DNA from: a virus
Length of the DNA stretch: 64,000 bases
Strand: one strand, 5' to 3'
IMG/VR virus record: IMGVR_UViG_3300027782_000044
Coordinates: 52,501 to 116,500 of that record
The notes beneath the pieces are model-generated. The model was not told the origin of the DNA. It worked only from the letters and a program-made list of their open reading frames with translations, and did no database searches. Within the stretch, counting starts at the first letter, position 1. Every line of letters begins with the position of its first letter. Below are positions 12,367 to 30,953 of the stretch, in pieces. The translations under genes and the position numbers were made by a program.

Positions 12367-12390
12367 AAAGGATTTACTATTAAGATACAA

Positions 12391-13146: not shown

Positions 13147-13219
13147 TATTGCTTTGTCAAAAAAAATATACTACAATATAAGTGTGTAATATTAATTACA
13201 CTATGCGGATATAACGCAA

Positions 13220-13260
13220 CAAAAACCCTAAAGGATCCGCCTCCTTTGGGGTTTTTTGTT
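13220..13260 (+). terminator. Intrinsic terminator-like hairpin in the leader of the methyltransferase
   Basis: AAAAACCCTAAAGGA-TCCGCC-TCCTTTGGGGTTTTTT. Confidence 0.6.
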
Positions 13261-13271
13261 TAAGGAGCAAA

Positions 13272-13904: not shown

Positions 13905-13916
13905 TACAATAATACT

Positions 13917-14567
13917 ATGACTACTTGGATGAAAAAAGAATTTGAAGATAGTGGATATTCTGTAGAGTGCCCTATTGATGGGCTTCTAGTTGTTAAAAAT
14001 TTTATAACACCAGAAGAAATTGAAGAATATAAATCTATTATTGCAAATATTACGGAAGAGCAATGGGATGAGTGGTATACAAGCCAATTAAAAGTTTTTA
14101 CAAAACAAAAATTTGGAAGAGAAGATGTTGAAAATTTAGTCAAAGAAGGTTTGTATGAAATAACATCAAACTGGAATGACAAAAACTATTCATTTATCAA
14201 CGCAGAAATTCATAGAAGAATAGATAAAAGATTTAATGATGTTCTTGAAAAAACAGATGAAGGACTAATATTGAGTGGATTTTATTTCTTTCAAAGAATG
14301 TACGACGGTGTTCAGCTAGTATCCCATCATGATCAAAACACAGATGAATCAATTAAGCATGCTGCAGTAATATATATAAATGACGATTATAATGGTGGAG
14401 AAATTTTTTGGGCTAAAAAGAATTTTGAAATGAAACCAGCCCCTGGAGATCTTTTACTATTTGGTGGAGATCCAGAGTGGGAACACGGAGTAAGGTTTGT
14501 AACGGAAGGACCTATGAGATATGTCCTTCCAGGATTTATAAAGATACCTAACTTTTATAAGCCTTAA
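13917..14567 (+). CDS. 2OG-Fe(II) oxygenase (prolyl 4-hydroxylase-like)
   Basis: HHD...YINDDYNGGEI...HGV..V..G.RY. Confidence 0.85.
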   Translation: MTTWMKKEFEDSGYSVECPIDGLLVVKNFITPEEIEEYKSIIANITEEQWDEWYTSQLKVFTKQKFGREDVENLVKEGLYEITSNWNDKNYSFINAEIHRRIDKRFNDVLEKTDEGLILSGFYFFQRMYDGVQLVSHHDQNTDESIKHAAVIYINDDYNGGEIFWAKKNFEMKPAPGDLLLFGGDPEWEHGVRFVTEGPMRYVLPGFIKIPNFYKP

Positions 14568-14570
14568 TTT

Positions 14571-15125
14571 TTATGAAAAAGTAACACACAAAATAAGAGA
14601 GTCTTCTTCTCCAAAATTAGATAGCTCTTCGCTACAAGGATTTGTAAGTATACAATATGATTCATTTGCACTGAAAGTTTTTTCTTCAACAAGGCTTGTC
14701 TTTAAGCTTCCGTCAAATACAATATACATCTTGTACCGCTCTTCGGCATCGTCTTCTACTTCTGATCCATAAAAAACATTATTTGTATATGTAAATGGCT
14801 CAGAATTAGAATAAGCAATTGTATAATACTTACTTACTGTTGGGAAAGAACCATTTTGTGTTTCAAAAAGCTCTGCTAGCTTTGTTCTAATTCCAACAAA
14901 AATAGGTTTTACTAAAAATCTTGAATGATAATAAACAGTTTTTGTTATATTGCCATCAACATCGACAAATTTTTCATCATCTGCTGCAGTTGCTAGCCAT
15001 TCTTTAAGAGCAATTATATCTTCTTCTGGAATACTCATAAAAAAAATATTCTCTTTAACTTTAGGCTCAAGGCCTGTGATTTCTGGCTCTTCTCCAGCGT
15101 GAGTTACATCATCAAGTATTCCCAT
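14571..15125 (-). CDS. Hypothetical protein
   Basis: Likely start at ATG 15125 (MGILDD), coupled to the upstream stop. Confidence 0.6.
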   Translation of the reverse strand: MGILDDVTHAGEEPEITGLEPKVKENIFFMSIPEEDIIALKEWLATAADDEKFVDVDGNITKTVYYHSRFLVKPIFVGIRTKLAELFETQNGSFPTVSKYYTIAYSNSEPFTYTNNVFYGSEVEDDAEERYKMYIVFDGSLKTSLVEEKTFSANESYCILTNPCSEELSNFGEEDSLILCVTFS

Positions 15126-15418
15126 TACTTTGCAGCCTTCCAAGCTTCAAGATCTGACATATCAGATTCTGTTCCAAAGTTTGATACTAGGTATTCTTCC
15201 GATTCTTCCAACTTTAAATTGGCTGTATCAGTAGTCAATTCATCGTAATTTTGATCTTCTTGATACTTGAGTGTCAACTTGCCATCTTTTGTTGCTTCAA
15301 CAATGTCTTCATCAGATAGTGATGGGTTTGCTGCTTTAAATTCTTTAACTAGAAAAAGGTCAAACTTATTCCAGATAGCCTCTACTCTTTCAGAGTCAAT
15401 TGTACTAAAAAATGCCAT
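15125..15418 (-). CDS. Hypothetical protein
   Basis: AAGGAG RBS and TATAAT upstream on the minus strand. Confidence 0.7.
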   Translation of the reverse strand: MAFFSTIDSERVEAIWNKFDLFLVKEFKAANPSLSDEDIVEATKDGKLTLKYQEDQNYDELTTDTANLKLEESEEYLVSNFGTESDMSDLEAWKAAK

Positions 15419-15701
15419 GGTGTATCTCCTTTAATTTTTAAGAATAAGTATATTATACCCTACATATTCTACAGATTCAATGTCATAAAAAGTGCGGCGA
15501 AAAGTGAGCCGAAAATTAGAGACCATCATTTTCACTTTCCTGTATTTTCCTCAACATCTCTATATATGCCAGTGCATCTTCCTCAGATGGCCCCTTTATA
15601 TATTCCTGTACAGGTACACCTGCCCATAGAATAAAAAGGAGGGCGGAAAGAGGAACATCATAAGCTAGCATATAGGTATTATACTCCCAATTTAATCCAA
15701 G

Positions 15702-15776
15702 TAGGCCTATTGGGATTTGAACCCAAAGTCGATTGCATATAAGACAATTGCTTTAACCAGATTAAGCTATAGGCCC
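15702..15776 (-). tRNA. tRNA-Ile (anticodon UAU)
   Basis: GGGCCTA/TAGGCCT acceptor stem, D-arm, ATTGT-CTTATAT-GCAAT anticodon arm and GGTTCAAATCC T-arm. Confidence 0.85.
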
Positions 15777-16496
15777 TTATATTAGCCTATTATCTGATAT
15801 ATGATACCAAGGATAAAAGTCATTGCAGTTACTATGGCTATAGCCAAAAGAAGTTTCACTGTTCTATCCCCGTTTTTTTAAAAATTGAATCTAGGACTTG
15901 ATCCATAGAATCATCTATCGTTCTAGTATGTTGCTTTGTACAGCTTCCACATTCTCTACACATATCTATCACCTATTTGTCTTATATTCTTTATCTTGTT
16001 TTATAGATTTTATCTGGGGATATTAGATTTTAGGAAAGCCCCCCTACCCCCCAAATTTTTTCTTTTTGGAAAGATAGAGAAAGCAATTCCTGGAACATAT
16101 ATCCACAGATGTTATCTGGTACATATTGAGTTTCAGGGTAAGCCCCCCACAAAGCAAACTAAGTGTAGCATTTTACTTTTACCAAAGTCAATAGCTTATA
16201 TAACAGCTATGTTGATCAAGTAGTATCTTACCATATTCCCCGCCATATATTCTAGTTGACTGCTTTTTCAGATTTCACAAAATGTTAATATATTTTTTAC
16301 ATGTATGATACACAATCTAGGCAAAACGGACATTTGGGATAGTGCGCCCATAGTTAAGCGTTTTTGTGATGTATCTCACGCAATTATTTTGTGATGTGCC
16401 TCACAATGTCCGAATTATACGCATTTTGGATTAGACATTTGTCAGACCCCCATGCTATGCTTAAGGTATAACAAACAAACGAAAGGTAATCATCTA

Positions 16497-16643
16497 ATGA
16501 ATACACTAGAACGAATTAGAAAAGAACAACAAGAGCGTTATGCGATACAGCGTGAGAAAGATAAGGCTAAAATTGAGGCTATGTTTTCTAACAATTCCCG
16601 CCCATTAAATAACGCTTACCTACTAGCAAAAGAGGAGAACTAG
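16497..16643 (+). CDS. Small early protein (first gene of the plus-strand block)
   Basis: Promoter 16440, GAAAGG RBS, ATG 16497. Confidence 0.6.
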   Translation: MNTLERIRKEQQERYAIQREKDKAKIEAMFSNNSRPLNNAYLLAKEEN

Positions 16644-16864
16644 TGTGACGAAGGTCACATAAATACTTTTGCGACACACCCGACAATGTCCCCAAAATGT
16701 CAGACCCCCATGCTACACTTACAACATAACAACAACGAAAGGTCACAATAAATGACACTAGATGAATACAAGCAAATGGTAGAGGCTCAACGCCTTGCCT
16801 CCCTATCAGTAGCCCTAGAGGCGCTAACTAAGTCAGACGCTATTGCTAAGGAGATGAATAAATA

Positions 16865-17047
16865 ATGTCATACGCATACTCATACGAAACTAACTCAGTA
16901 TCTAAATGGGATACTATCCAATCAGATGTCGCAGACGCATACGCATACCTTGATGAGGTAGATGAGGAACAACCTCCACTAGATGATTTTGATGACTCAG
17001 ATGATGAGGCACTAGCAAAACTATTCGCACTAACATGGGAGAACTAA
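16865..17047 (+). CDS. Small acidic early protein
   Basis: GGAG RBS; very D/E-rich. Confidence 0.65.
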   Translation: MSYAYSYETNSVSKWDTIQSDVADAYAYLDEVDEEQPPLDDFDDSDDEALAKLFALTWEN

Positions 17048-18084
17048 TAATGATGTACCCTAACGATACACTAGCAAACATGGCTAAAGATTTTGGCTAT
17101 GATGTAACACCTAACTTTCTTGAACTACTAAACAAGGCTTATGAACTAGGCGTGGAGGATACTTACTAATGATTAACGCTTTTGAGAATTTACTATCTAT
17201 CGAACTAAACGAATACGGACTATGCGTTGATACAGCATGGTTTTACATAGCGTTAGATTATCGCTTTTTAACTACCGCCCTGCTAGTAACTATTGCCTAT
17301 AAGATTTATAAAAGAAAGAAGAATAAGTAATGAATAGACTACTTACCACACTAGTACAGTTAGCCCTTATCATCCCCGCCCTTATCATGGGGCGCATGAT
17401 GTGGCGTGAGATCGTAGCGAACTTTAGAGAGTGGGCTAACTCACACTAGCCTAACGGCGTGTCGGCTTGACAATGTCAAGCTGGCCCGCAAGTACTTGCG
17501 GGAGTTATCCACAGGGTTACGTACGACTGTGGAAAACCCCAGGATTTATGTGAGATTAATCACAAAAAATAGTTTTGCGACACGCCCGAGAAACACCTCA
17601 AAATGTCAGACCCCCCTGCTATAATTGCGGTATAACGAAAAGAAAGGTGGTCTAAAATGACTACACTAGAAATGACCAAGTGCCTAGAGCACACCCCTAA
17701 TAAGCCTGCTATCTCAGATGTAGGAGATGAGCAATTCACCTTCTGTGAGAATTGTGAGCAAAACATCTCACGCTATTATGGTGACCATGACCCTGAGCGT
17801 TTGCCTATGTGGACAGATTGGTATTTAACTAAATGAGTATCTTTACTAAGTTTGCTACTGTAAGCGATTACCCTAAAGGCTTAATGAACCTATGCCCATG
17901 CGGGCAGGTAGTGTTAGCCCCTGCCCTATACCATGCGGGGCAACCCCATTGGGATAACCCTAATAAGTGTAAAGAATTGTGGGCTATCTCACAAAAAGAA
18001 ATTACCAACACGCCCTCTAAATAAGGCAAAATGTCAGTACCCTCTGCTATAATTCCATTATCAACAAAACGAAAGGCGGTCAAA

Positions 18085-18264
18085 ATGACTGTACTAATCT
18101 CATCAGAGGTTCTAGAGAATAGAGCCCTCTCTATCTCAGAGCCTCAATTCTATCGTGTGGCTACTACCTCACTAATTGCTTGCTCTATCTGTGCGGATAA
18201 CTACCTAGAGGTATTCTCTAAAGATGCCGACTTTACTAAATTTACATGTGAGGGGTGCTGGTAA
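18085..18264 (+). CDS. Small Cys-rich (zinc ribbon) early protein
   Basis: CSIC...CEGC; the real start follows the GAAAGG RBS. Confidence 0.6.
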   Translation: MTVLISSEVLENRALSISEPQFYRVATTSLIACSICADNYLEVFSKDADFTKFTCEGCW

Positions 18265-18414
18265 TGAATAAAGATGAAAAGATTGCTAAGATTACCGAAA
18301 TGGCAAAAGCACAATTTGGAGACAACTACCTTGCTTGCTTATGGGGATCATCTCGCGTTTTATTATCAGATAAAGATTTAAACATTATTATAAAAGTATT
18401 GGAGAATAAATAAA

Positions 18415-18612
18415 ATGGGAAAAACACAATTCGAAAAAGATTTAGAAATTAAAGAAAGTTTTATAGATTTACTAAATGATGTTTACCCTGATGTAAAAAT
18501 TGGTTACTCTACTTTTACAGCCGCCGAAATTTTGGAATGTTGCGACCCAATCGCTTTTTCAATCGGACTAATTGAACATGAAGATTATTTAGCAGAAATG
18601 GAAAACGAATAA
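18415..18612 (+). CDS. Hypothetical early protein
   Basis: GGAG RBS; LNDVYP..ILECCDPIAF. Confidence 0.65.
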   Translation: MGKTQFEKDLEIKESFIDLLNDVYPDVKIGYSTFTAAEILECCDPIAFSIGLIEHEDYLAEMENE

Positions 18613-19088
18613 TGAAAGAAACAGAAATTAAAAATAAGTGTACCTGTGACGAACACGATTGTGAAATTAAAGATGACTATACGCAAAATGGTTATATGTG
18701 CGAAGATTGTTTTATGGATTGCGTAGAAATGGAAAACGAATGAGCGACATTTTTGGATTTGAAAAAGCAATTCAATTAGATCATCTTAGCGATGAGCAGA
18801 TTTTAAAGCTTGAAGAAATTTTTAAAGATTTCGAATAAGTAACGGCGTGTCGGCTTGACAAAAGCTGATCCGCCCGCAAAAGAGCGGGGTCGGGCGTGTC
18901 GTTACGGGTGTGATCAAAATTACCCAGGTTTTACGGCGTGTCGATTTGACAGACAAAACGGACATTTTTGTGTGAGGTTTATCACATGGCTTGAGCGTCT
19001 CAAAATGTGGAATTACTCGCTAGTAATGTGAAAATGTCAGTGCGATAGGCTATAATTGCTACTATCAACAAACGAAAGGTGACAACTA

Positions 19089-19298
19089 ATGTCAGCAAAA
19101 CCATACACAATCGTAAGCCTCTTAGAGGGAAAATACTATCGCTCACACTCACGCCATGATGAAGGCGTTATCCAATACGCAACGCCTCGCCCTGAAATTT
19201 GGTACGGCTCAGGCTTTGAGGCTTATGCTATCGAGGTTCGCTCAACTCGTGGAATTAAAAACTTTTGGGCAACTGTCGCGGTAAAGGTTGGTGACTAA
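19089..19298 (+). CDS. Hypothetical early protein
   Basis: Directly after promoter 19035 and the GAAAGG RBS. Confidence 0.7.
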   Translation: MSAKPYTIVSLLEGKYYRSHSRHDEGVIQYATPRPEIWYGSGFEAYAIEVRSTRGIKNFWATVAVKVGD

Positions 19299-19607
19299 TG
19301 ATTAAAGAATACTTAGATGAAAACGAATTTTATTTTATTAAAGACCAAATAAAAATTCATTGTGACGAGCAACAATTTGTCCATGTCTGTAAAGCGCATG
19401 GCGAACAAATGGGTTGCTACTTTTGCGAATTTGACTACGATAAGAAATGCGAGTGTGAAGGATAATGATTAACTCAGTATTAACAATAGATTGCTCAGAG
19501 TGTAACTCAACAGGTTTAATCTTTTTTGGTAGTGGAGAGGATTTTGATGTCGAGTCTTGCGATTGCGTAGATGATGGCTCACTATTCAGAAATGGAGAAA
19601 ATAACTA

Positions 19608-19814
19608 ATGTATAAAATAACTATTGCTTATGACTCAAATACTCCTCATTGGACTAAGCCTTACAATGATGAAATGGAAGCATGGAAAGATTTCTTTTCT
19701 TTTACCGATTGGGGTTTTGCTAATGAATTCTCAACTGTAAATATTTACACGCCAGCAGGCAAATGCTACACAAAAGTTTTTTACCGAGAAGGCAGAAGGG
19801 TCGTAACTAAATAA
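19608..19814 (+). CDS. Hypothetical early protein
   Basis: GGAG RBS; coupled ORF. Confidence 0.6.
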   Translation: MYKITIAYDSNTPHWTKPYNDEMEAWKDFFSFTDWGFANEFSTVNIYTPAGKCYTKVFYREGRRVVTK

Positions 19815-19977
19815 TGGAAATTTTTGAGTTTAATACTTTCATAGATGTAGAAGCAGAGTCGTATGATGAAGCCATAGATGTATTTCAGTTTCAGTTAAAG
19901 TATGGAATAAATAAAGATAATGTTTATGTCGCCGACATAAAACAATTAACCAATAACGAAAGCGTGGAAGTATAAAA

Positions 19978-20169
19978 ATGATGACTCGTAAAGATTATGT
20001 TGCCGTTGCTGAAATTTTAAAGTTTGCTAGTGATAAAGCGCACCCTGCTTTATTTTCTAAAATTGTAAATGATTTCGCAGTTATGTTCGCAAAAGATAAT
20101 GAGCGATTTGATGTAAACCGATTTCATGAAGCGAGTGGCTATCATGTCACAAAACTCACTTCGAGATAA
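19978..20169 (+). CDS. Conserved small phage protein (MTRKDY...NERFD..RF type)
   Basis: MTRKDYVAVA...DNERFDVNRF motif. Confidence 0.65.
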   Translation: MMTRKDYVAVAEILKFASDKAHPALFSKIVNDFAVMFAKDNERFDVNRFHEASGYHVTKLTSR

Positions 20170-20444
20170 AGTTAAACGCATACAGGAATTGCGTCGCAGT
20201 AATGCGGCGCAGCCTGTACGCAATAAGAAAAAATATTTTAGAAAAATAAAACATAAAAATAAATTTGATCAATAGCGCTGCCCGCCCGTAAAGCTGCGGG
20301 GTTATCCACAGGGTTACGGGACTTATCCACAACCCCCTGGATTTTGTGATTAATCTCACAAAAGCTGCGACACGCCGAGAATGGATTAGGTAATGTCAGT
20401 GGCATAGGCTATAATACTCTTATACCAACAACGAAAGGCAATAA

Positions 20445-20648
20445 ATGAAAATAGAACATAATCTAAAATTCGTTACAGAATTTATGGAAGGTCATCCAGT
20501 AACTCGTCAAATAGAAATGCTTGATGAGCAATCACAAATTGAAATGCTAGAGGGTATGCTAAAGTCTTTAGTCGCACCACGCCTACAACCTATCCTTGAT
20601 GAGATAAATGCTAATGGCTCTTACGCAATTCTAAAGGTGGCAGAGTAA
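20445..20648 (+). CDS. Hypothetical early protein
   Basis: Follows promoter 20394. Confidence 0.65.
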   Translation: MKIEHNLKFVTEFMEGHPVTRQIEMLDEQSQIEMLEGMLKSLVAPRLQPILDEINANGSYAILKVAE

Positions 20649-20842
20649 TGATTAGGATTTATAAAGTAAATATGGAACACTCTTATATTGTAAAGACAAG
20701 TGACATAAATGAAGTCTTATTAAACTATGAGTTTCCAGACTTTACTGCTTGTGAGTCTTTAGATGAAAATAACTTTCCAGAATATATCAGTAGCGTAGTT
20801 GGATATGAAGAAATAACCGAAGAAGAATTGGAGAATATGTAA
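20648..20842 (+). CDS. Acidic hypothetical protein
   Basis: TAATG coupling. Confidence 0.6.
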   Translation: MIRIYKVNMEHSYIVKTSDINEVLLNYEFPDFTACESLDENNFPEYISSVVGYEEITEEELENM

Positions 20843-21108
20843 TGGGATACAATACAGCGTTAGATTTATCTAATGAATTAGATTTAGAGGTAGCACTAGG
20901 TTATCACTTACAGGGTAATCATTACCCTCCCGTCCCTCTTTCTATGGTACAGCCTTGTATCGATGCTATCGATGCTTATTATGATGAGGATTATAATAAG
21001 ATGATCGAAATGCCTGAAGGCGTATCTTATAAGGGTGACTCTTATGCGCCAGCGTGGGCTATTATCGAACAGCACCACTTAGACGCTTGGCTACCTGAAA
21101 GTGACTAA
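20842..21108 (+). CDS. Hypothetical early protein
   Basis: HLQGNHYPPVP...HHLDAW; TAATG coupling. Confidence 0.65.
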   Translation: MGYNTALDLSNELDLEVALGYHLQGNHYPPVPLSMVQPCIDAIDAYYDEDYNKMIEMPEGVSYKGDSYAPAWAIIEQHHLDAWLPESD

Positions 21109-21204
21109 GGTCACACAATAACTTTCTCAAATACTGAGATAGGGCTAGACTAATGTCAGACCCCAATGCTATACTACAACCCTAACAAAGAAAAGAGGCA
21201 ATAA

Positions 21205-21387
21205 ATGACAATCAACGACAAGTTGTACCAAGTGGGCGATTTATTCACCACACTAAAGTCAAAGAAAACTGGTGTGATTAAGGAAATCCACCCACAGGCA
21301 TCTGGCTCGGTGCGTGTGCTACTAGAAATGCCAACGAAAGAAACTCGTTGGACTTCAGTATCCGCTCAAACGCTACTAGGCGTATAA
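21205..21387 (+). CDS. Small SH3/KOW-like protein
   Basis: YQVGDLF..KTGVIKEI..VRVLL..RWT beta-barrel pattern. Confidence 0.55.
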   Translation: MTINDKLYQVGDLFTTLKSKKTGVIKEIHPQASGSVRVLLEMPTKETRWTSVSAQTLLGV

Positions 21388-21481
21388 TCTAAAGGCAGGG
21401 GGGTCGCAGAAATGTCAGACCCCCCTGCTATAATTACAACTTCACAAACCCACTAAACCCACTAACGAAAGAAGGCAACAA

Positions 21482-21904
21482 ATGGCTAGAAGCAAAGCAA
21501 TAAATGTAAAAATCGCAACAGTTAAAATCATCACCGCACTAGAAAGCGCACTCGCTAAACTAGAAAAAGATTATGCGGCACAAGCAACTAACGAAGCAAA
21601 GTATGAAAAGTCTATGGAAGTATGGCGTAAGGCTATTGGCAAATGGGCTATGGAACGCTGGGCTAAGGCTGAGGACATCAGAACTAACTACCGCTCTTGG
21701 AATAACCAGTTAAACATTGACTTTAACTTAACAACCAAAGAGGCAGACTTTCCTGCTGAACCTCAAAAGGACTATGAAACAATCCACTCTAGCACTTATC
21801 GTGAGTCTAAGAAGGAATTGGAAAACGCAATTCGTATTCTAAAGATGACAGATGAGGAAACAGTTAATACATCAACCTACAATGCGGTTGCTGAGTATCT
21901 CTAA
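21482..21904 (+). CDS. Hypothetical coiled-coil early protein
   Basis: Follows promoter 21413; ends ELENAIRILKMTDEETVNTSTY. Confidence 0.75.
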   Translation: MARSKAINVKIATVKIITALESALAKLEKDYAAQATNEAKYEKSMEVWRKAIGKWAMERWAKAEDIRTNYRSWNNQLNIDFNLTTKEADFPAEPQKDYETIHSSTYRESKKELENAIRILKMTDEETVNTSTYNAVAEYL

Positions 21905-21913
21905 ATAAACCAA

Positions 21914-21952
21914 CGACCTGAGTATGTCGCCAAACTGCTCTCCCTTCGGGGA
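21914..21952 (+). ncRNA. Putative small H-type pseudoknot RNA element (copy 1) plus UUCG hairpin
   Basis: CGAC-CTGAGTAT-GTCG stem; loop GAGTA pairs with downstream TGCTC; followed by TCCC-TTCG-GGGA. Confidence 0.5.
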
Positions 21953-21975
21953 CAACTACTAACAAAGGCAACAAA

Positions 21976-22230
21976 ATGAAAAATCGTTTCAGAGTAGAAA
22001 TCTATGATGAGAACAAGTTAAATGATGTAACAATTTATTCAGAGCAAGGCGTTGATAAGGAATACTTAACTGAATTAGCATTCTCTAATCGCCGTAACTT
22101 CTTTGGTGATGTTCGTGCTTATGTGTATGATACATTGAAGAAGACTAAGACAACTGCTCTTTACCTCCCGTCCGAAGTTATTAACTTCAATCGCAAAAAC
22201 CAATTAACTAGGGATGAGTTAGGTCTGTAA
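21976..22230 (+). CDS. Hypothetical early protein
   Basis: AAAGG RBS; 84 aa ORF. Confidence 0.65.
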   Translation: MKNRFRVEIYDENKLNDVTIYSEQGVDKEYLTELAFSNRRNFFGDVRAYVYDTLKKTKTTALYLPSEVINFNRKNQLTRDELGL

Positions 22231-22430
22231 AGATCTAACACTGGCTGCATATCCTGCAGCTGGCCCGTAAAGGTAAGGGGTTATCCACAGGTTTACGGGA
22301 GCCTGTGGAAAACCCTGGAATTTTGTGAGATTAATCACATGGATCAATTCGGACATATTGTATCTAATCATAGACAATGTCAGTGGCACCTGTTATACTT
22401 ATGACTAATCAAACGAAAGGTAAAAAATAT

Positions 22431-23438
22431 ATGGCTCACAATCTAGAAATGGAAAACGGCGAAGTTGCTTTCGCTCTCCGTGGCTCACCTGCTTGGCACA
22501 ACCTAGCAAATCGCATCTTCACAAAAGATGAAGAAGTTACTACCGCCCTAATGCTTGAAGAAGCAAAGTTGGCAAATTGGAATGTTCGTCTATCTCCAAT
22601 CACTGAGCACATTCCAGAATCTTGGAATGATGTATCTACAGCATCTCTTGTCATTCGTGACAATCCATTCAATAATGGAACTGATGTTCTTGCCACTGTT
22701 GGCAAGCGTTACAAGCCTGTACAGAATGAAGAGTTATTCGCATTCGCTGATGCTATTCATGATGCGAACGCTGATTGCCGTTGGGAATCTGCTGGCTCAT
22801 TAAAAAAGGGTAAAGTAGTTTTTGGCACTGTTGATATTCCTCGCACAATGGTTCTTGACCCACAAGGCGCCAATGATGAAACTAAACTCTATTTAATTGT
22901 ATGGACATCACATGACGGGTCAGTTGCTGTTCAGGCTGCTGTTACTCCTGTTCGTGTTGTATGCCAAAACACATTGAATCTTGCTATGCGTAACGCTAAG
23001 CAATCATTCAAGATTCGCCACACGCAATCTGTTGAAGGTCGCATTCAAGTTGCTCGTGAAACTCTTGGGCTTGCTCTTGGTTACTTTGATGAATTCGAGA
23101 AAGAGGCGCAAGCACTTTATTCTCAGGCAATTACTGATGCTGAATTCTCAAAGTTGATTCACACAATTTATCCAAAGCCTGCTGATGATGCTTCTAAGGT
23201 TGCGCTAACTAAATGGGAGAATAAAGTTGTTCTCCTTGATGACCTTTATCATAACTCACCAACTAACGCTAACATCAAGGGAACTAAATGGGGTGCGTTT
23301 AACGCTCTCACCGAACGCCTTGACTACTATCGCTCAGGTCGCGGAAATTCTGAAACGCTTATGGCTGGCGCATCAGGATTTGACCCAGTGCTAACCGCAG
23401 AAAAAAATAAAATTAAGAAATTAATTTCTGCGTTCTAA
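22431..23438 (+). CDS. DUF932-family phage/plasmid protein
   Basis: MAHNLE..PAWH.L, YKPVQNEE, ESAGSL..GKVVF, SHDGS, TPVRVVCQNTL, IRHT and GTKWGAFNALTE motifs; start after the GAAAGG RBS. Confidence 0.9.
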   Translation: MAHNLEMENGEVAFALRGSPAWHNLANRIFTKDEEVTTALMLEEAKLANWNVRLSPITEHIPESWNDVSTASLVIRDNPFNNGTDVLATVGKRYKPVQNEELFAFADAIHDANADCRWESAGSLKKGKVVFGTVDIPRTMVLDPQGANDETKLYLIVWTSHDGSVAVQAAVTPVRVVCQNTLNLAMRNAKQSFKIRHTQSVEGRIQVARETLGLALGYFDEFEKEAQALYSQAITDAEFSKLIHTIYPKPADDASKVALTKWENKVVLLDDLYHNSPTNANIKGTKWGAFNALTERLDYYRSGRGNSETLMAGASGFDPVLTAEKNKIKKLISAF

Positions 23439-23444
23439 ATAAAA

Positions 23445-23473
23445 TAAATCCTGAGCAAGATTTAAAACTGCTC
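23445..23473 (+). ncRNA. Putative small H-type pseudoknot RNA element (copy 2)
   Basis: TAAATC-CTGAGCAA-GATTTA stem, AAAC linker, then TGCTC pairing with loop GAGCA. Confidence 0.5.
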
Positions 23474-23485
23474 ACAATTTTTCTT

Positions 23486-23562
23486 GGTCCATTAGCTCAG
23501 TTGGTTAGAGCGCTACCCTGTCACGGTAGAGGTCGACGGTTCAAGTCCGTTATGGATCGCCA
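23486..23562 (+). tRNA. tRNA-Asp (GUC)
   Basis: Canonical cloverleaf; CTACC-CTGTCAC-GGTAG anticodon arm; encoded CCA. Confidence 0.95.
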
Positions 23563-23663
23563 AGCGCCCTCAATGCTAAGGGGGCAAAAAGTGTGTTACG
23601 AGTCACAAAGAAATTCCCTGGAATCTATTGTAAATGTCAGTGGGCTCCTGTATAATTCTCTTC

Positions 23664-24338
23664 ATGACCAACGAACTAGTATCAAGTAAATATACTTTTG
23701 TCTGTGACCCAGATGAATGCGATTGCTTAATAGAACTAACATCATCTGATGGATTTGGATTCCCATCAGGTGTGACTCAACTCACATGCCCGTGTGGCCG
23801 TAAGACCACATTAGTGTCAGTGGAGCATGCTACAATTACATCCTTAAACCAAACGAAAGAAGGAAATACAATGGACGGAATGACAGTAGAAAATCTACCG
23901 CTATCAGATTCAGAGAAGTACAACCCTGACCTATTAGTTACATATAAGGTTATCCGTGGATTCTCGGATGAAACATATGAAACAGATAAGGTTCGCAACA
24001 TTGAATGGGAACTACATAATGCTAGAACTAATTCTAAAGCAGTTTCTTCTCTCCAAAATAAGATTAGCGTAGTTAAAGATATTATTTCTGAGGCATATGC
24101 TGATTCGGAAGACCAAGAAACACTGCAGGCAATTGCCGAGGCACTTGAGATTGAATTAGTTAAGGAAATTGAATGGAGCGCATCTATTGAAGTTAGCGGA
24201 ATTATTACCGTTAATCTACTTGAAGATACTCACTTTGATTTAGATTCAGAAATTGAAGATGCTCTTTATGCTGATTCACATAATGGCAACATTGAAGTTG
24301 TTGACCAAGAAATCTGTAATGTAAGAGAGAACTGCTAA
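23664..24338 (+). CDS. Hypothetical protein with N-terminal Zn knuckle; probable internal in-frame start at 23871
   Basis: CDPDEC..CPCG; internal promoter at 23815 and an RBS precede MDGM. Confidence 0.65.
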   Translation: MTNELVSSKYTFVCDPDECDCLIELTSSDGFGFPSGVTQLTCPCGRKTTLVSVEHATITSLNQTKEGNTMDGMTVENLPLSDSEKYNPDLLVTYKVIRGFSDETYETDKVRNIEWELHNARTNSKAVSSLQNKISVVKDIISEAYADSEDQETLQAIAEALEIELVKEIEWSASIEVSGIITVNLLEDTHFDLDSEIEDALYADSHNGNIEVVDQEICNVRENC

Positions 24339-24541
24339 TGTATTTTGAACTTACCGCTCCTAATAGGCTCTCCATGGAGAGGGCCTATTGGGATGCAGAA
24401 ATAAATGGACTAGACCCGCAGCGTATGGCTCCATTGACATTCAACATTGGAACTGGTAGTATTGAGAAAGTAAGTCGCTTACGAGATAAGTATAACTTAA
24501 CTGAATCATACATATCAGACTACGAAACAACAGGCTACTAA
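24338..24541 (+). CDS. Hypothetical protein
   Basis: TAATG coupling. Confidence 0.65.
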   Translation: MYFELTAPNRLSMERAYWDAEINGLDPQRMAPLTFNIGTGSIEKVSRLRDKYNLTESYISDYETTGY

Positions 24542-24693
24542 GGAGAAATTATGTCAGAGTATAAAGATGGTTGGGCAGATGGATATAAATTTGCTCGTGA
24601 AGAAATTATGGAGAAATTGTCAGAGATTGATATCAACGACATTGACTCTTGGATTCTTGACCGTCTATCTGAGATGATTGAGGGAGGAAAGCT

Positions 24694-24903
24694 ATGACAA
24701 CGGAAGATCTAACAAGATGGATAGCATGCGACCAATGTGGCACTGCTCAAGCAATGTATATGGTTAAACTAGTAGAAGGTCAACTTTTCTTCTGCGGGCA
24801 CCATTACAATGCAAGCAAGCGTGGCCTTGACAAGGTCTCATATGAAGTGGTAGAATTAAATAAAAAGGAAGAACTAATACCTCAACTAGAAACGGCGGAA
24901 TAA
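24694..24903 (+). CDS. Small Cys/His zinc-binding protein of actinobacterial type
   Basis: CDQCG..AMYMV..LFFCGHH. Confidence 0.7.
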   Translation: MTTEDLTRWIACDQCGTAQAMYMVKLVEGQLFFCGHHYNASKRGLDKVSYEVVELNKKEELIPQLETAE

Positions 24904-24904
24904 A

Positions 24905-25270
24905 ATGGGCGACAGAGCAAACTTTGGATTCAGAGATTCCAAGGAGAATGTACTATTTCTATATGGACACTGGGCTGGATATAATATGCTAGCCAAGTTG
25001 GCCAATGCTGTGCAGGCTGCAGAGCCTCGCTGGCAGGATGAATCATATGCAACACGTATTGCTATATCTAATCTAATTGGAGAAGACTGGACTGAAAAAA
25101 CAGGCTGGGGTATCTACATTAATCAATTAGGAGATAATGAGCATAAGGTGCCTGTTATTGATTGGGCCAACCAAACGTTTACATTGTATGAAGAGGACCT
25201 GAGCACAGTAGTGTTTACTTCGTCCCTCGCAGCATTCGTAGACAAATACAGTCGACTAGTTATGGTATAA
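24905..25270 (+). CDS. Conserved actinophage hypothetical protein
   Basis: MGDRANF..LYGHWAG..RWQDESYATRI. Confidence 0.75.
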   Translation: MGDRANFGFRDSKENVLFLYGHWAGYNMLAKLANAVQAAEPRWQDESYATRIAISNLIGEDWTEKTGWGIYINQLGDNEHKVPVIDWANQTFTLYEEDLSTVVFTSSLAAFVDKYSRLVMV

Positions 25271-25393
25271 TAGTATCAGGACTTTGGTCCTGGTTTTAAT
25301 ATAGAAATGAAATGGTGCGTCTATTAGTCTATGGGCCAGGCGCTAAGTAAAGCGGTTTATTTCTTTCGTTGGAAATCAGCAGCCATATTCATA

Positions 25394-25424
25394 CCCCCCA
25401 GCTTTTAGCTGGGGGTTTCTTTTT
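25394..25424 (+). terminator. Intrinsic terminator
   Basis: CCCCCAGC-TTTTA-GCTGGGGG followed by TTTCTTTTT. Confidence 0.8.
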
Positions 25425-25599
25425 GCCCGCAAAGACTTGAGGGTAGCATATTGTTCTTACGACTGTCAAATATATTTCCCAGGAATTTGTGTGATCTTGA
25501 CCACAAAGCTGAATAATGTGGCATGTATCACATGCCAATTCTATTCCATTTGTCAGTGGTCCATTGTATAATTGGAACATATCAACGAAAGGATATAAA

Positions 25600-26334
25600 A
25601 TGCCAAATTGGGTATTTAATGGATTAACTATTGAAGGTAATCCTGAGCAAGTAAAATCTCTAATCAAGCAAATGAATAAGCCATTTGTTTATTCTATCAC
25701 TGCAGTAGGTGATTTGTCATATGATGTTAAGCAGACTAAGTATGTTAATCCTATCTTTGCTTTTCATAATATCTATAACTATAGAGATGCTGGTATTACT
25801 GATGAGGTATATCATGGACAGCCTCCTCGTTCCACCGATTTTTCTCAGGCAATGAAGTTTGAAACCAATGACTGGTACAACTTCAATGTGCGTGAGTGGG
25901 GAACCAAATGGGATGTTGCTGTAGCCGAGGATAATGTTTATCCTGACACAACTATTGAAGAAGCCGAGAACGGTGAGAACTATGTAGTCCATTACAACTT
26001 TAACACTGCATGGTCACGACCTCTTGGTGCTATATCTAAACTATCTGCACAATACCCAACACTACTATTTACTTTATCATATGAAGAAGAAACAGGTTGG
26101 GGTGGAGAAATGGAATTCCTCCGTGGTGAAGTTATCTCAGAATCAGAATACGATAACATGTGCCGTGATTGTGATGCAACTGACCAAATGGAATACTGCG
26201 ACAATGATTGCGGTGAAATCTGTAGCAACTGCAACTGGCTTGGCGAGGCAGACCTAGAGGCTGTCGCAATTTGTCAGACCCATAAGATATACTTAGACAC
26301 TAAAGTACCCGAATATAGAAAGGCGGAAGCATAA
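25600..26334 (+). CDS. DUF1281/YubB ferredoxin-like domain protein
   Basis: MPNWVFNGLTI, WYNFNVREWGTKWDV, FNTAWSRP and Cys-rich C-terminus. Confidence 0.8.
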   Translation: MPNWVFNGLTIEGNPEQVKSLIKQMNKPFVYSITAVGDLSYDVKQTKYVNPIFAFHNIYNYRDAGITDEVYHGQPPRSTDFSQAMKFETNDWYNFNVREWGTKWDVAVAEDNVYPDTTIEEAENGENYVVHYNFNTAWSRPLGAISKLSAQYPTLLFTLSYEEETGWGGEMEFLRGEVISESEYDNMCRDCDATDQMEYCDNDCGEICSNCNWLGEADLEAVAICQTHKIYLDTKVPEYRKAEA

Positions 26335-26546
26335 TGGAACCATTTACAGATACAGTAGGAGAACATATCCTTGGAGCAATTCAAGTAGATATTGAGCAAC
26401 ATCTCTTTGAACAATGGAATGATAAGAATTTAGATGAGGGTAGCGATTATGCTGAATATATGTTCATGCAATTTGCTCCTGATAACTTAAAACAATCATA
26501 CAATGAGTATTATGGTTATATTGAAGGAGATGATTTCTGCTTATGA
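26334..26546 (+). CDS. Acidic hypothetical protein
   Basis: TAATG coupling. Confidence 0.6.
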   Translation: MEPFTDTVGEHILGAIQVDIEQHLFEQWNDKNLDEGSDYAEYMFMQFAPDNLKQSYNEYYGYIEGDDFCL

Positions 26547-27054
26547 TTACCAGCCAAGAACTAATTGATTATATCTATGATGACAACTTAATCCATTTTG
26601 ACGACAGAGATACATCAGATGATTGTGATTGTCACATTCATATAACATTAAACACTATGGTTAAATATATGGAGGCAATTGAATGCTAGGTTATACTAAA
26701 ACAGATCTTGATGAGATGATTAACTCAGTACATGATGCTAAGTTATTTTATCTTAGGACCCCGTCCGATTTAATGGACAAGTCATTATTAACTGAAGGTT
26801 TGTTAAAAACAAATGATTTCCTCCAGGGGTTATGGGCGGAGGGTTACTTTGACTAAGTCATCACACTTCATAGAATATATGAAGATACATTTAATTAGTC
26901 TTAACCAGGATTTAGAGGATGCAAGAAACAATGAACCTTTAGATGAAGATGAATATTGGGAATCAGATTCATTCTATATGGGAGCAATTGACGCAACCGA
27001 ACATTTATTGTCAGTGGCAACTGATATAATGATTAATAACGAAAGGGTATATTA

Positions 27055-27327
27055 ATGAACTCAGAAGACATTGGGCTCCCGCCCCATTTGCAACGCTTGG
27101 TCAATGCAGGTGTTAGTGGATTAGATATAATGCACGGTGAACTAAAGAATCTAATGCTAATTGCCGAGCAGGAACTAGCAGACGCAATTGAACGGGAAGA
27201 AGAGTCAGGCGAGGCTATGGACTCTATGGTCCGTACAGAATGCGAAGGCGCACTAGATACCTTGGTTTTACTATACCAACTAACATACGACCTATCATTT
27301 GCGATTGGAGCACGAGATGAAGCCTGA
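27055..27327 (+). CDS. Hypothetical protein
   Basis: Follows promoter 27009 and the GAAAGG RBS. Confidence 0.7.
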   Translation: MNSEDIGLPPHLQRLVNAGVSGLDIMHGELKNLMLIAEQELADAIEREEESGEAMDSMVRTECEGALDTLVLLYQLTYDLSFAIGARDEA

Positions 27328-27631
27328 CGATAAAGATAAACTAAACAAGTGTTTAGAGATTCTAGACAGCACTGACCTAGGTCTATCATTAGTTTGGCTA
27401 TGGACATGGTCAACAATTAATAACATCCTAGAGGATGACACCTATGTTGCCAAGGTAACCCAAGATGACATGTGGAACCACCTGTGTGAGGCTGTGGAGG
27501 CTGGACAAGGCTTCTCCTTGGAATGGGGCGCCGAACAACATCAGGAAGAAGTTTTAGATTGGATGATGAACAGGGATTACATCGTAGACCCTGATGATGA
27601 GGAAGAGGAGGACGAAGATGAAGATGAGTGA
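27317..27631 (+). CDS. Hypothetical protein with acidic tail
   Basis: GGAG RBS; ends DDEEEEDEDEDE. Confidence 0.65.
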   Translation: MKPDDKDKLNKCLEILDSTDLGLSLVWLWTWSTINNILEDDTYVAKVTQDDMWNHLCEAVEAGQGFSLEWGAEQHQEEVLDWMMNRDYIVDPDDEEEEDEDEDE

Positions 27632-27757
27632 TAAGTACTTAAACGATCAACTTAGTAAAGCCCAAAAGCTTTTGTGGGGTGGGTCCGAAACAGAAAACAT
27701 CGAGGCCCATAACATCATTGCTAAACTAATTAAAGAAAAGATAGAACAGGTGGAACT

Positions 27758-27940
27758 ATGAGTAAAGAGTTTAAAGTCTATGGAGACATTATTCAGGAGT
27801 ACTACATTGTAGTAGAAGCCAAAGATAGTGATGAAGCATGGTACAAAGCAGTAGCCACACCTAAAAAGGAATGGAAAAAGGGTACCACTCGCAAGGACAA
27901 GATAGAACCTTATCAAGTAGAAGAACTAACAACTGAATAA
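27758..27940 (+). CDS. Hypothetical protein
   Basis: VEAKDSDEAW motif; RBS present. Confidence 0.6.
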   Translation: MSKEFKVYGDIIQEYYIVVEAKDSDEAWYKAVATPKKEWKKGTTRKDKIEPYQVEELTTE

Positions 27941-28086
27941 AGATAGGTTGGGCCGTTATGGACAATTCGGACATAACGGTCATAATCTAAGGGCACGGGC
28001 AAAAATATTGCTTTACGTACCCTATTTACAAATCCCCGAAATTCATATATAATATATATAACAAAGATCTAGAAAGGATCAAACAA

Positions 28087-28236
28087 ATGACAACATCAAC
28101 AACAACTCGTGAATACCTAAAGACCCAGGGCATTGCTGTGGGCAAGCGTGGTCGCTTCTCAGCTGCAGCTCTAGGAGTTATCAGCAAGGCTGTGCAAGAC
28201 GGAGTAGTCTTCTCAGACAAGAAGAACGCCAAGTAA
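28087..28236 (+). CDS. Lsr2-like DNA-binding-domain-only mini protein (49 aa)
   Basis: Not in the ORF track. MTTSTTTREYLKTQGIAVGKRGRFSAAALGVISKAVQDGVVFSDKKNAK; GAAAGGA RBS; RGR AT-hook in an Lsr2-like context. Confidence 0.7.
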   Translation: MTTSTTTREYLKTQGIAVGKRGRFSAAALGVISKAVQDGVVFSDKKNAK

Positions 28237-28348
28237 TAAACTAAGTGTGGGGACCCTCCTCTCGTGGGAAACGGGAAAGGGGAGGGTCCTCGCTTCATTT
28301 ACAAATGTCAGTGGTCAATGGTATAATCAAAACGAAAGGCGGAACTCA

Positions 28349-28693
28349 ATGGCTAAAGCAAACGAATTCAAAGCAGCAGAAAAACTAACAGACTATCTAA
28401 ACAATGCTAACTTCTCACCTGCCGTAATGGCAAATGTATTAACAACTGAACATACCTTGTATACCCAAGACAGACTAATGGAACTAGTTAGATATATTAT
28501 CCAATACAATTCCCTTAGATTAAAGTCAGAATGGGATAAGGGATATACATCCGAAGGATTGCTTTTAGCAGATGCGCTCAATGATATGCTGGAAGCAAAA
28601 TATGGAGCGGTGGATAGAAACCTAACAATAGACTCCTTGAAAGAAACAAGAGTAAGAGACCCTAAATATATAATGGATCTAGATTCATTCTAA
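28349..28693 (+). CDS. Hypothetical protein (last gene of the plus block)
   Basis: Follows promoter 28306; MAKANEFK start. Confidence 0.7.
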   Translation: MAKANEFKAAEKLTDYLNNANFSPAVMANVLTTEHTLYTQDRLMELVRYIIQYNSLRLKSEWDKGYTSEGLLLADALNDMLEAKYGAVDRNLTIDSLKETRVRDPKYIMDLDSF

Positions 28694-28705
28694 GATAACT
28701 TCCCC

Positions 28706-28746
28706 TATGGGGCATATGGCTTTAATTAGCTGTATGTCCCATTTTT
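28706..28746 (+). terminator. Terminator hairpin ending the plus-strand block
   Basis: ATGGGGCATATGGC-TTTAATTA-GCTGTATGTCCCAT followed by TTTT. Confidence 0.65.
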
Positions 28747-29200
28747 GTATGCCCATCTTATGGGCCAAATTTTTGCTTTACGAAGCATATAAAAAACCCC
28801 TGGAAATTGTATACATATCGATCAAAATCTGTCAATATCTGCATAGAATATCTCATTATATGAGACAAATAATGCAGAATTAGACATAATTTTTTGCCAT
28901 AAATATGGGCCAAAATTGCTCTTTACGACCAAATAAAAAAATTTCCTGGAATTTTATATGAAAGCTATTGACAAATATTGGCCAATATGCTTTATATGGG
29001 CGCTATTGACATTACGTCCCATCATATGATATGCTCAATTACATACATATGTTTAGATAGTTATAATGATAGTATTTGGATCTAAATTGATAGTATGATT
29101 CTCCACTTTACTCCACAATACTCCACTAAATAAGCCTATAGGAGGCTGATACAAGGGAGATTAAGGGGAGGGGGATATAGTAGTTAGCTCCTACTTTGCT

Positions 29201-29383
29201 CTATTTGCAAGATACGCAGTAATATGGAGCACGAAGGTTTTCTGGAGCAGTATATCCTGTTCGAGCACATTTGTGACATGTAGCTTTAATTAGATTAGAT
29301 TGCTCTATATCAAAAGTAAATGATCTTGTGTAATAGATCTTAGTTAAATACCATGTAATGGCTATGGCTAGTATAGTTATCAT
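29201..29383 (-). CDS. Small membrane-anchored zinc-finger protein
   Basis: N-terminal TM segment; CHKC..CVSC; leaderless after TGATATAAT. Confidence 0.6.
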   Translation of the reverse strand: MITILAIAITWYLTKIYYTRSFTFDIEQSNLIKATCHKCARTGYTAPENLRAPYYCVSCK

Positions 29384-29697
29384 TCATCTATTATATCACT
29401 CCTATATAATCTTAGTCAACTAAGACTCTAATTGTCTGCCTATTTGTGCAGCTTTCTTTCTTACCTTGTCTGCTGATTCTATGGTATGTTCAATTGATTG
29501 TTGAAAGGATTTGCACATTTTGCAGAGATCGAGCATATCTGGATATTTAGCCCATGCTGCTCTATTTGTCTCTATTGAACATGTCTTGCACATTGGAGTA
29601 TTCATGTTATGTCTTTCTATAGTAAACGAGGATGTTTATCCCTATAGTACTATTGTACTCTATTGGATCCCCGCCTAAAGGCTAATGGCTAGGGCTA

Positions 29698-30729
29698 TCA
29701 CTCATCTCTTCCAACCAGATACTCCCTCTTAAATTTAAAAAAATTAGATAGGTCTATGCCTATTTTATCATAATACTGAGCAATCGATTCCTTATTTGGT
29801 GCTCCCCAATACCCAAGGTATTCTCCAGAAAATATTTGAGACTGATAATAGGCTGACTTTCTTTCATCGTATACACCAATCCTGCCCCTACTTAAAGCTC
29901 TCCAGTCATTATCAGATAAAAGCTTTCCATCGTTAAACTTATCTTTAGTCCAGGCTATACATTTTTTAATTCCAAACATCCTGTAGCCTCTAGTACCTGC
30001 TCTAAAAGATAGATTAGTCTGATCTCCATTAAAAGGATTAGTTGGATCGTGCATTATCTCACGAGCAAAGGCAAAGTTTGTGAACATGAATGAAGCATGT
30101 ATTAATCCATGCTCAACAAAATCTTGGCCATCTTTCCAGTTCATGCCACTTCCTTCAATAAAAGGGTGCTCTATCATTTCTTCGCTGTGAGTTGTACTAT
30201 TAATATGGTCAGAAGAGTTAACAGTTATAATCCTTATTGCCAATGAGCCAAAGTTTTCTTCAGTCTTAAAGTTTAATGGATCTATCTGCACACCGCTAAA
30301 TCCATGCAATAATACTTCTTTATTTGGTCCATCTATCCATCTCGGAGGACATGCAGATATTATAGGCTTATCGCAAACCTTTAGCAAATCTTTGTAGTGC
30401 TTCTTGAGAGTAGTATCCCAGCCTTTTTCAAAAATATTATGTGCATCAACTTGGAGCAAATACTCATGATCCCTATGGTTCATCATAGAAGCCATAAGTC
30501 TACCAATCCCAGTTCCTAATGGACGTTCATGCTTTATCTCTACATAGTTTATTCTTGGATTATTGAATATTGGATCTGACAAAAAGTCTTTTTCATCTAT
30601 AACTGTGTTAGCAATTCCAAAATATAATAGATCTGGGCTATCTGCATTTTCAAGTGCGCTTTTAATTGTTTGAACTAAGAATTCTTCTTTACATGCGGCT
30701 ATAGATATATAAATTGTTTCTTCTATCAC
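29698..30729 (-). CDS. GT-A glycosyltransferase, Skp1-hydroxyproline GlcNAc-transferase-like
   Basis: TIYISIAACKE..LVQTIKSAL..A..P..LYFGI and YLLQVDAHNIFEKGWD. Confidence 0.8.
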   Translation of the reverse strand: MIEETIYISIAACKEEFLVQTIKSALENADSPDLLYFGIANTVIDEKDFLSDPIFNNPRINYVEIKHERPLGTGIGRLMASMMNHRDHEYLLQVDAHNIFEKGWDTTLKKHYKDLLKVCDKPIISACPPRWIDGPNKEVLLHGFSGVQIDPLNFKTEENFGSLAIRIITVNSSDHINSTTHSEEMIEHPFIEGSGMNWKDGQDFVEHGLIHASFMFTNFAFAREIMHDPTNPFNGDQTNLSFRAGTRGYRMFGIKKCIAWTKDKFNDGKLLSDNDWRALSRGRIGVYDERKSAYYQSQIFSGEYLGYWGAPNKESIAQYYDKIGIDLSNFFKFKREYLVGRDE

Positions 30730-30953
30730 AAATGAATCTCATTTACAGGTTCTTTTGACCAGTGTATATATGATCTAATATAGACTATTGCATAGGCAAT
30801 TGCTGAGGCTATAAATCCATATTGTTTTGTAATTAGAGCATACGTTATCCATAGGCATTCATTAAATAGAAGAATGAACCATCCCCATATAGTCTTTCTA
30901 CCTACAAAGTAGATACCTGTTACGCCTATAATAGCTAATATCCATGACCACAT
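30726..30953 (-). CDS. PnuC-like small membrane protein
   Basis: Three TM helices; GW...NECLWITYA..TKQYGF. Confidence 0.65.
   Translation of the reverse strand: MWSWILAIIGVTGIYFVGRKTIWGWFILLFNECLWITYALITKQYGFIASAIAYAIVYIRSYIHWSKEPVNEIHL

Follow-up and report, generated by a model that had tools for sequence, protein, structure and literature searches.

Fifteen same-strand TGTCAG promoters in a small-gene block of an uncultured lake actinophage, with the host activator PafBC as their probable reader

The IMG/VR record IMGVR_UViG_3300027782_000044 describes an uncultured virus of 116.5 kb (37.5% GC) that is rated 97% complete, and the window analysed here is its right-hand 64 kb (positions 52,501 to 116,500 of the record; all positions below are those of the window). 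On its plus strand lies the sole sizeable plus-strand gene block of the genome, with about 36 open reading frames (ORFs) of 30-335 amino acids (aa) that are preceded by Shine-Dalgarno (SD) sequences, as counted with a crude ORF caller. Along this block the element TGTCAG-N10-TANNNT, a hexamer ten nucleotides (nt) ahead of a -10 box, recurs 15 times, and the host protein that reads it is probably PafBC, as argued below. A Pfam scan of 50 ORFs, 43 of them from the block, found the families DUF932, DUF7455 and DUF1281_C, in the block, left most of the small ORFs without a known family, and gave no helix-turn-helix (HTH) family at E<=0.01. Rfam searches over 12000-31000 found nothing beyond two tRNAs, and searches of GenBank phage DNA, both near and distant, returned no match for the block or for one promoter-plus-gene taken from it.

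The window holds 16 matches to TGTCAG-N10-TANNNT, whereas 100 dinucleotide-preserving shuffles, none of which reached 16, gave a mean of 0.79 (standard deviation 0.78, maximum 3). On the plus strand, from 16440 to 28327, lie 15 of the matches. The 14 coordinates listed in an earlier, sequence-only reading of this DNA were all exact, and one further site (26272-26293) had been missed. Eight of the 15 sites read TGTCAGTG-N8-TA (19035, 20394, 22378, 23635, 23815, 25551, 27009 and 28306), as that reading had stated; the rest carry TGTCAGACCC (6/15) or TGTCAGTACC (1/15). Its remark that no copy was seen outside the block is nearly correct, with one extra match on the minus strand (45834-45855). This match was rejected as a promoter, being a chance hit on the opening codons of whiB (ATG TCA GAC). 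In the remaining 52.5 kb of the genome TGTCAG-N10-TANNNT has no match and the TGTCGG form has one, on the minus strand, which equals the level of a backwards-pattern control. The block, the promoters and the tRNA gene among them are as follows.

15936..28883, plus strand: the gene block, sole sizeable one on this strand in the 116.5-kb genome (strand map)
16440..16461, plus strand: promoter 1, TGTCAGACCC class; -10 TATGCT; TAGACA 18 nt before the -10; ATG 16497 (48 aa)
16698..16719, plus strand: promoter 2, TGTCAGACCC class; -10 TACACT; ATG 16752 (37 aa)
17604..17625, plus strand: promoter 3, exact 22-mer TGTCAGACCCCCCTGCTATAAT, common to at least 118 viral contigs; ATG 17657 (59 aa)
18032..18053, plus strand: promoter 4, TGTCAGTACC, TGCTATAAT; ATG 18085
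19035..19056, plus strand: promoter 5, TGTCAGTG class; -10 TATAAT; ATG 19089 (69 aa)
20394..20415, plus strand: promoter 6, TGTCAGTGG class; ATG 20445 (67 aa)
21154..21175, plus strand: promoter 7, TGTCAGACCC class; ATG 21205 (60 aa)
21413..21434, plus strand: promoter 8, the 22-mer of promoter 3; ATG 21482 (140 aa, no family found)
22378..22399, plus strand: promoter 9, TGTCAGTGG class; TAGACA 17 nt before the -10; ATG 22431 (335 aa, DUF932)
23486-23562, inside the plus-strand block: tRNA-Asp
23635..23656, plus strand: promoter 10, TGTCAGTGG class; ATG 23664, Cys-rich ORF that shares the reading frame of the following gene
23815..23836, plus strand: promoter 11, TGTCAGTGG class; inside the ORF begun at 23664; SD and ATG 23871 (155 aa)
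25551..25572, plus strand: promoter 12, TGTCAGTGG class; ATG 25600 (244 aa, DUF1281_C)
26272..26293, plus strand: promoter 13, TGTCAGACCC class; in the 3' end of the preceding ORF; ATG 26334 (70 aa)
27009..27030, plus strand: promoter 14, TGTCAGTGG class; ATG 27055 (90 aa)
28306..28327, plus strand: promoter 15, TGTCAGTGG class; TTTACA 18 nt before the -10; ATG 28349 (114 aa)

A ACGAAAGG-type SD sequence with an ATG follows 29-47 nt downstream at 14 of the 15 sites; at promoter 10 an ATG instead stands 7 nt past the -10 and would give a leaderless mRNA. Placement, strand and number support the prediction that the 15 sites are real same-strand promoters ahead of small ORFs. The putatively leaderless ORF (23664-24338) has a Cys-rich N-terminus (CDPDECDC...CPCG), and because promoter 11 and the SD-ATG at 23871 lie in frame inside it, the same protein may be produced in a longer and a shorter version. 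Upstream of the first promoter, about 650 nt without a convincing ORF (15780-16440) separate it from minus-strand genes with tRNA-Ile, and this gap holds runs of C and of G, e.g., at 16040-16056 and 16140-16150.

The same element is widespread among related phages. At least 118 IMG/VR contigs (33-41% GC; 1.12 Mb of loci) contain the exact 22-mer TGTCAGACCCCCNTGCTATAAT from the block, identical throughout and set in varied flanking contexts, and these form the set of relatives used here; in the 40 contigs checked with CheckV, completeness grows with size, which fits fragments of one genome type of ~100-116 kb. TGTC[AG]G-N10-TANNNT occurs 892 times in the 1.12 Mb. A logo of the 626 distinct cores shows an A-rich stretch at positions -2 to 0, TGTCAG, a W-S-S triplet, the TG of an extended -10 (G in 83%) and TATAAT, with A at position 5 of the hexamer in 570 cores and G in 56; T occupies position 7 in 59% of the cores, and 45% have G as the eighth base; the -35 positions reach at most 0.2 bit, so there is no -35 consensus. 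The distance to the -10 is fixed to the base. Across the 118 loci TGTCAG precedes TANNNT 830 times at N10, versus 21 at N8, 8 at N9, 8 at N11 and 29 at N12, and TGTCGG does so 62 times at N10, versus 3, 5, 1 and 16 at the same four spacings. These two are the sole clearly enriched hexamers of the form NGTCNN, with enrichment at N10 only, and CGTCAT (38 vs 1-15) and AGTCAG (17 vs 0-5) are slightly raised at that spacing. The orthologous DUF932 promoter of one relative (L006) has a different spacer (ACCCCCC) with the same hexamer and distance; conservation thus applies to the hexamer and its distance to the -10 and not to the spacer. In eight of eight near-complete genomes (the phage itself and seven relatives) the motif clusters on one strand in one stretch of ~6-13 kb, with 6-21 copies versus 0-4 for the backwards control. 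A sub-lineage with an 83% identical RecA and 39.5% GC has kept the element, with more TGTCGG and with -10 boxes like TAGACT. More distant partial contigs (RecA 59-66% identical) are free of the motif, but do not cover the block region.

PafBC is a WYL-domain activator that responds to single-stranded DNA; once switched on, it sits between domain 4 of sigma-A and the DNA, a mode of action termed sigma adaptation. To our knowledge, PafBC and sigma adaptation are known solely as a host DNA-damage response. The consensus of the RecA-NDp promoter is tTGTCRgtg-N8-TAnnnT. The in vivo consensus of PafBC from chromatin immunoprecipitation is given as tGTCgg(N10)tA(N3)T, the PafB HTH is placed at -23 to -28 with two arginines reading the GTC triplet, and PafBC promoters are described as lacking a -35 consensus and as having guanines conserved across actinobacteria, all in one report (PMC8635444). 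The likeness that the sequence-only reading had suggested holds against this consensus: hexamer, N10 spacing and -10 of the phage motif equal it (PMC8635444). A literature search found, among the papers listed, no description of PafBC- or RecA-NDp-type phage promoters.

The actinobacterial LexA box is TCGAAC-N4-GTTCGA, and mycobacteria have an ftsK-pgsA-recA neighbourhood. Metagenomes were scanned with a pattern that combined the promoter motif, a start codon and the RecA GKGxxM motif back-translated for low GC. Of the 31 stretches returned, 16 begin a RecA ORF, and seven of these 16 are actinobacterial-type (five distinct promoter sequences, 46-66% GC). At these seven loci TGTCRG-N10-TAnnnT lies 29-52 nt before the start codon, and in four of the five distinct sequences a TCGAAC-N4-GTTC box lies ~40-55 nt upstream. 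At the 46% GC locus, which is beside ftsK and pgsA, TGTCAGTG-N8-TAGATT follows an A/T-rich stretch; at a 55% GC locus pgsA adjoins recA. Together, box and element make up the dual arrangement known for recA, LexA plus RecA-NDp; PMC8223512 describes recA as being under dual control. The scan also hit Bacteroidota-like RecAs and others, at what seem to be chance matches or sites of a different sort. Two metagenome recA loci (L231 and L243; 41-47% GC) have TGTCAG as the right half of a palindrome, CTGACA-N6-TGTCAG, which looks like an operator of another kind rather than a RecA-NDp site.

The right phylum for PafBC is indicated by the affiliation of the phage. Its terminase shares 63% identity with the one from Streptomyces phage Gilson (Stanwilliamsviridae), with ~61-64% among the top matches listed, and the nearest cultured relatives are phages of Streptomyces, Gordonia and Rhodococcus; the DUF932 protein is ~50% identical, among the matches listed, to those of Streptomyces phages such as Anedea. 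The window encodes a WhiB (PF02467, 47.4 bits; 45635-45808, minus strand), which is present in all seven relatives that are at least 90% complete and in 16 of 40 records overall, most of the others being fragments. Orthologues occur in 127 Streptomyces and nine Rhodococcus phage records, with 44-49% identity over nearly the full length among the best 40 listed, and whiB serves as an actinophage marker in the literature (PMC6802176, PMC10202952). Judged by its WhiB and its relatives, the phage is an actinophage. Freshwater actinobacteria are reported to have ~42% GC, with one isolate at 46.5% (PMC6802176, PMC10202952). Mycobacterium smegmatis, an organism proposed earlier for reporter work, is not plausible as the host of a 37.5% GC lake phage and could serve as a surrogate only. 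A search with the phage RecA for a host returned phage relatives only among the best 120 matches. The sole match of the 22-mer in bacterial and archaeal genomes is a 3.8-kb contig (L121) in a Methylophilaceae metagenome-assembled genome; this contig is probably a phage fragment binned by its low-GC composition and was not taken as evidence on the host.

A reader encoded by the phage was sought in six-frame profile searches. No WYL domain was found in the whole 116.5-kb genome or in any of 13 relatives; HTH_PafC was found in 0 of 5, HTH_11 and Sigma70_r4 gave no match over the cut-off, and neither MotCF (PF09158) nor AsiA (PF09010) matched at E<=1. The only DNA-binding candidates among 113 window ORFs scanned with Pfam are WhiB and one weak HTH of 45-51 aa beside the terminase genes. 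A PafBC-related reader would therefore have to be the host's, since the phage has no WYL or PafBC-like gene. WhiB itself was rejected as the reader: Gilson and Anedea have orthologous WhiB proteins, and TGTCRG-N10-TANNNT is at control level in both (1 and 3 matches versus 3 and 2 for the control).

The rest of the genome shows a second kind of promoter. Canonical TTGACN-N16-18-TANAMT promoters number 12 on the minus strand versus two on the plus strand (shuffle mean 3.7 for both strands), e.g., at 55847, 46111, 34619, 33135, 29419 and 28835; one lies ahead of a tRNA cluster and another ahead of a gene pair whose last member is whiB. Because the minus-strand promoters have TTGACA-like -35 boxes and the block has no such consensus, the phage has two promoter classes, split by strand. 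The minus strand between 29200 and 64000 encodes host-like and repair-type proteins: RecA (61798-62802), SSB, RuvC, SNase, a PD-(D/E)XK nuclease, a class II ribonucleotide reductase, a GMP reductase/IMPDH-like protein, thioredoxin, AhpC, a ferritin-like protein, Cpn10, a radical SAM/SPASM protein with a subtilase, and several 2OG-Fe(II) oxygenases.

The surroundings of the block promoters have features of their own. Promoter 8 sits in a GC-rich hairpin, GCAGGGGGGTC...GACCCCCCTGC (21395-21428; -14.9 kcal/mol and z -6.6 when folded as DNA), which is followed by TATAATT, and its arrangement with the gene behind it recurs in many related contigs; the hairpin may be part of a terminator-promoter cassette. 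Contigs from other public runs fuse promoter regions that are separate in the window (16717/17638, 16723/18007, 17672/19063 and 28327/25586), and conserved promoters seem to be places where relatives acquire, lose or exchange gene cassettes. Ahead of many promoters of the group two upstream words, ATGTCCGA(T/A)TT and GCGACACGCCCGA, recur, 35-50 nt before TGTCAG in the related loci L003-L120 and at 16405-16416 in the window. Words sampled from the block were present at 30% in one lake metatranscriptome and in small shares in three other runs, as seen in contigs only. An error-free 453-nt contig from an RNA run does not mark a transcript start, because it starts 6 nt before promoter 8. Palindromes of the CRP/GlxR type (TGTGA-N6-TCACA, at most one mismatch) are concentrated in the block, which holds 13 of the 14 in the window (span 16365-25532; examples at 16390, 16644, 17549, 18971, 20345, 22324 and 23771); 12 of the 13 lie 34-64 nt upstream of TGTCAG and one at 75 nt. 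The commonest distance, 54 nt, would put the centre at about -74.5 if transcription starts 7 nt past the -10. As such palindromes lie upstream of most block promoters, other host regulators are probably involved too.

Taken together, these data favour PafBC of the host, or a closely related host paralogue, as the reader of the TGTCRG element, a reading that we hold with moderate confidence. It is the best explanation because the hexamer, its wobble and the single-base spacing match, the phylum is the right one, and the phage has no reader of its own. In the mechanism that we propose, the host's housekeeping RNA polymerase, of the sigma-A type, would read the 15 promoters at a -10 usually preceded by TGn, with TGTCRG at about -28 to -23 standing in for the -35 box. 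Host PafBC, once switched on by single-stranded DNA, would bind TGTCRG and activate the block of ~36 small genes; the trigger could be phage DNA as it enters, damage done early to the host's DNA, or DNA damage from outside, and ordinary -35/-10 promoters would serve the rest of the genome. The sequence-only reading had the phage wire its early programme to the host PafBC response, and of this the promoters, the motif match, the actinophage affiliation and the lack of a phage WYL gene have held up; PafBC as the reader, the timing of expression and the trigger by single-stranded DNA we infer from sequence, and the gene content of the block suggests that it would be early.

Several points weigh against this reading. 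As the sequence-only reading had cautioned, six of the 15 sites carry a weak look-alike of a -35 box, a hexamer that matches TTGACA at 4-5 of six positions and lies 17-18 nt upstream of the -10 (16432, 19028, 21146, 22371, 23628 and 28298). At ten sites the TGn of the extended -10 is perfect, and such a -10 can function with no upstream element. Six sites have ACC after the hexamer, not the gtg of the RecA-NDp consensus. Because the query contained the motif, the metagenome scan shows that the layout, including the A as fifth base, exists at recA of low-GC actinobacteria, and neither its frequency nor that these organisms are hosts of the phage; that the host carries PafBC is presumed. Among the genomes found, the motif cluster is confined to one phage group, which leaves room for a lineage-specific phage factor, and the 12 canonical minus-strand promoters could fire first and supply a reader made by the phage. 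The two cultured Streptomyces relatives lack the motif, and Streptomyces is itself reported to use RecA-NDp promoters (PMC5087735).

Among the alternatives, an adaptor that is made by the phage or delivered with the virion might read TGTCAG in the manner of MotA/AsiA of phage T4, which would make the block a delayed ('middle') class that comes on after the canonical promoters. We regard this as unlikely. Middle promoters of T4 are similar in having a box, (a/t)(a/t)(a/t)TGCTTtA, whose distance to a sigma-70 -10 is 12 +/- 1 bp, and roughly half of them have TGn (PMC2988021); the minus-strand promoters could express such a factor before the block is read, the motif is so far limited to one phage group, and most of the small ORFs have no known family. 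However, six frames hold no MotCF, AsiA, WYL, PafC-HTH or sigma homologue, although an analogue unrelated to these may exist; the transcription-type matches among the 113 ORFs are WhiB and the weak small HTH only, and WhiB orthologues occur in both Streptomyces phages checked, which do without the motif. A phage adaptor would also need a coincidence to arrive at the PafBC hexamer, its A/G wobble and its exact spacing.

It is also conceivable, though in our judgement improbable, that the sites are plain strong extended -10 promoters for sigma-A, in which TGTCAG is the operator of a repressor that shuts them off later, or part of a promoter cassette that spreads and shuffles genes through recombination. 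TGnTATAAT in ten of the 15 sites and the prevalence of the TGn G among the 626 promoters would suit this, as would the 22-mer that stays identical as a whole between different flanks, the contigs of other runs that join one promoter to another, and the overlap of promoter 8 with a terminator-like hairpin, which resembles the PeSL cassettes of T4-type phages (PMC2839356 and PMC4122927). Cassette spread, however, leaves unexplained why the spacer is free (TGG..., ACC..., TCC...) while the hexamer and N10 are fixed; an operator would need no single-base spacing to the -10; and 345 of the 634 extended -10 sites in the relatives carry TGTCRG exactly placed. Very improbable, in our view, is that some other host factor, such as another activator or an accessory protein of sigma-A, reads the element. 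The CRP-type palindromes leave some space for it, but in actinobacterial-type contigs the same element follows a LexA-type box at recA, where a PafBC promoter is known to lie, and we know of no other described actinobacterial system with TGTCRG 10 nt from TAnnnT. WYL regulators, for their part, are numerous in Actinobacteria (PMC6789036) and add to the candidates for such a factor.

If host PafBC is indeed the reader, a very abundant group of lake phages would use the host's alarm for single-stranded DNA as the switch of its takeover genes, phage gene timing would be tied to DNA damage without a prophage repressor, and the 626 distinct cores would be a natural variant set for the DNA requirements of PafBC. 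Going further, the element may be an activator gate without any repressor, with the takeover block silent until host PafBC fires on entering DNA or on sunlight-type damage; this extension is speculative and we think it doubtful. Were it true, the DNA-damage alarm of very abundant and slow-growing lake actinobacteria would set the time of their infection, in the first lytic phage programme run by sigma adaptation. If the PafBC reading is wrong, the alternative would be a new sigma-redirecting factor in actinophages, which is also of interest.

The block can be set beside four known systems. Middle promoters of T4 likewise use a host -10, often with TGn, and a box near -30 that replaces the -35, but they differ in the sequence of the box, in its spacing of 12 +/- 1 and in having a phage-encoded reader (PMC2988021). 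PeSL cassettes of T4-type phages are like the block in that small ORFs of variable content are bordered by conserved promoters, some of which overlap a stem-loop, and in that the promoters sit at the junctions between what is shared and what varies among relatives; they belong to another phage family, another host and another type of promoter (PMC2839356 and PMC4122927). The genome-end array of Anedea-type Stanwilliamsviridae also consists of small genes, including DUF932, with a promoter per gene or per few genes, whereas its promoters look like ordinary TTGACA-N17-TAGACT ones behind terminators. PafBC promoters of the host differ from the phage sites in several respects: the latter stand 15 in series, ahead of small genes without an annotated function and not of host repair genes, have A far more often than G at position 5 (570/626), combine a strong TGn extended -10 with an A-tract just upstream of the hexamer, and in about half of the cases carry ACC or another S-rich triplet in place of gtg. 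The gtg is shared in part, as TG after the hexamer in eight of the 15 sites. What the phage sites and the PafBC promoters described in PMC8635444 have fully in common is TGTCRG with its invariant GTC and its A/G wobble, the exact N10 to TAnnnT, the position of the element at about -28 to -23, the -10 itself, and the missing -35 consensus.

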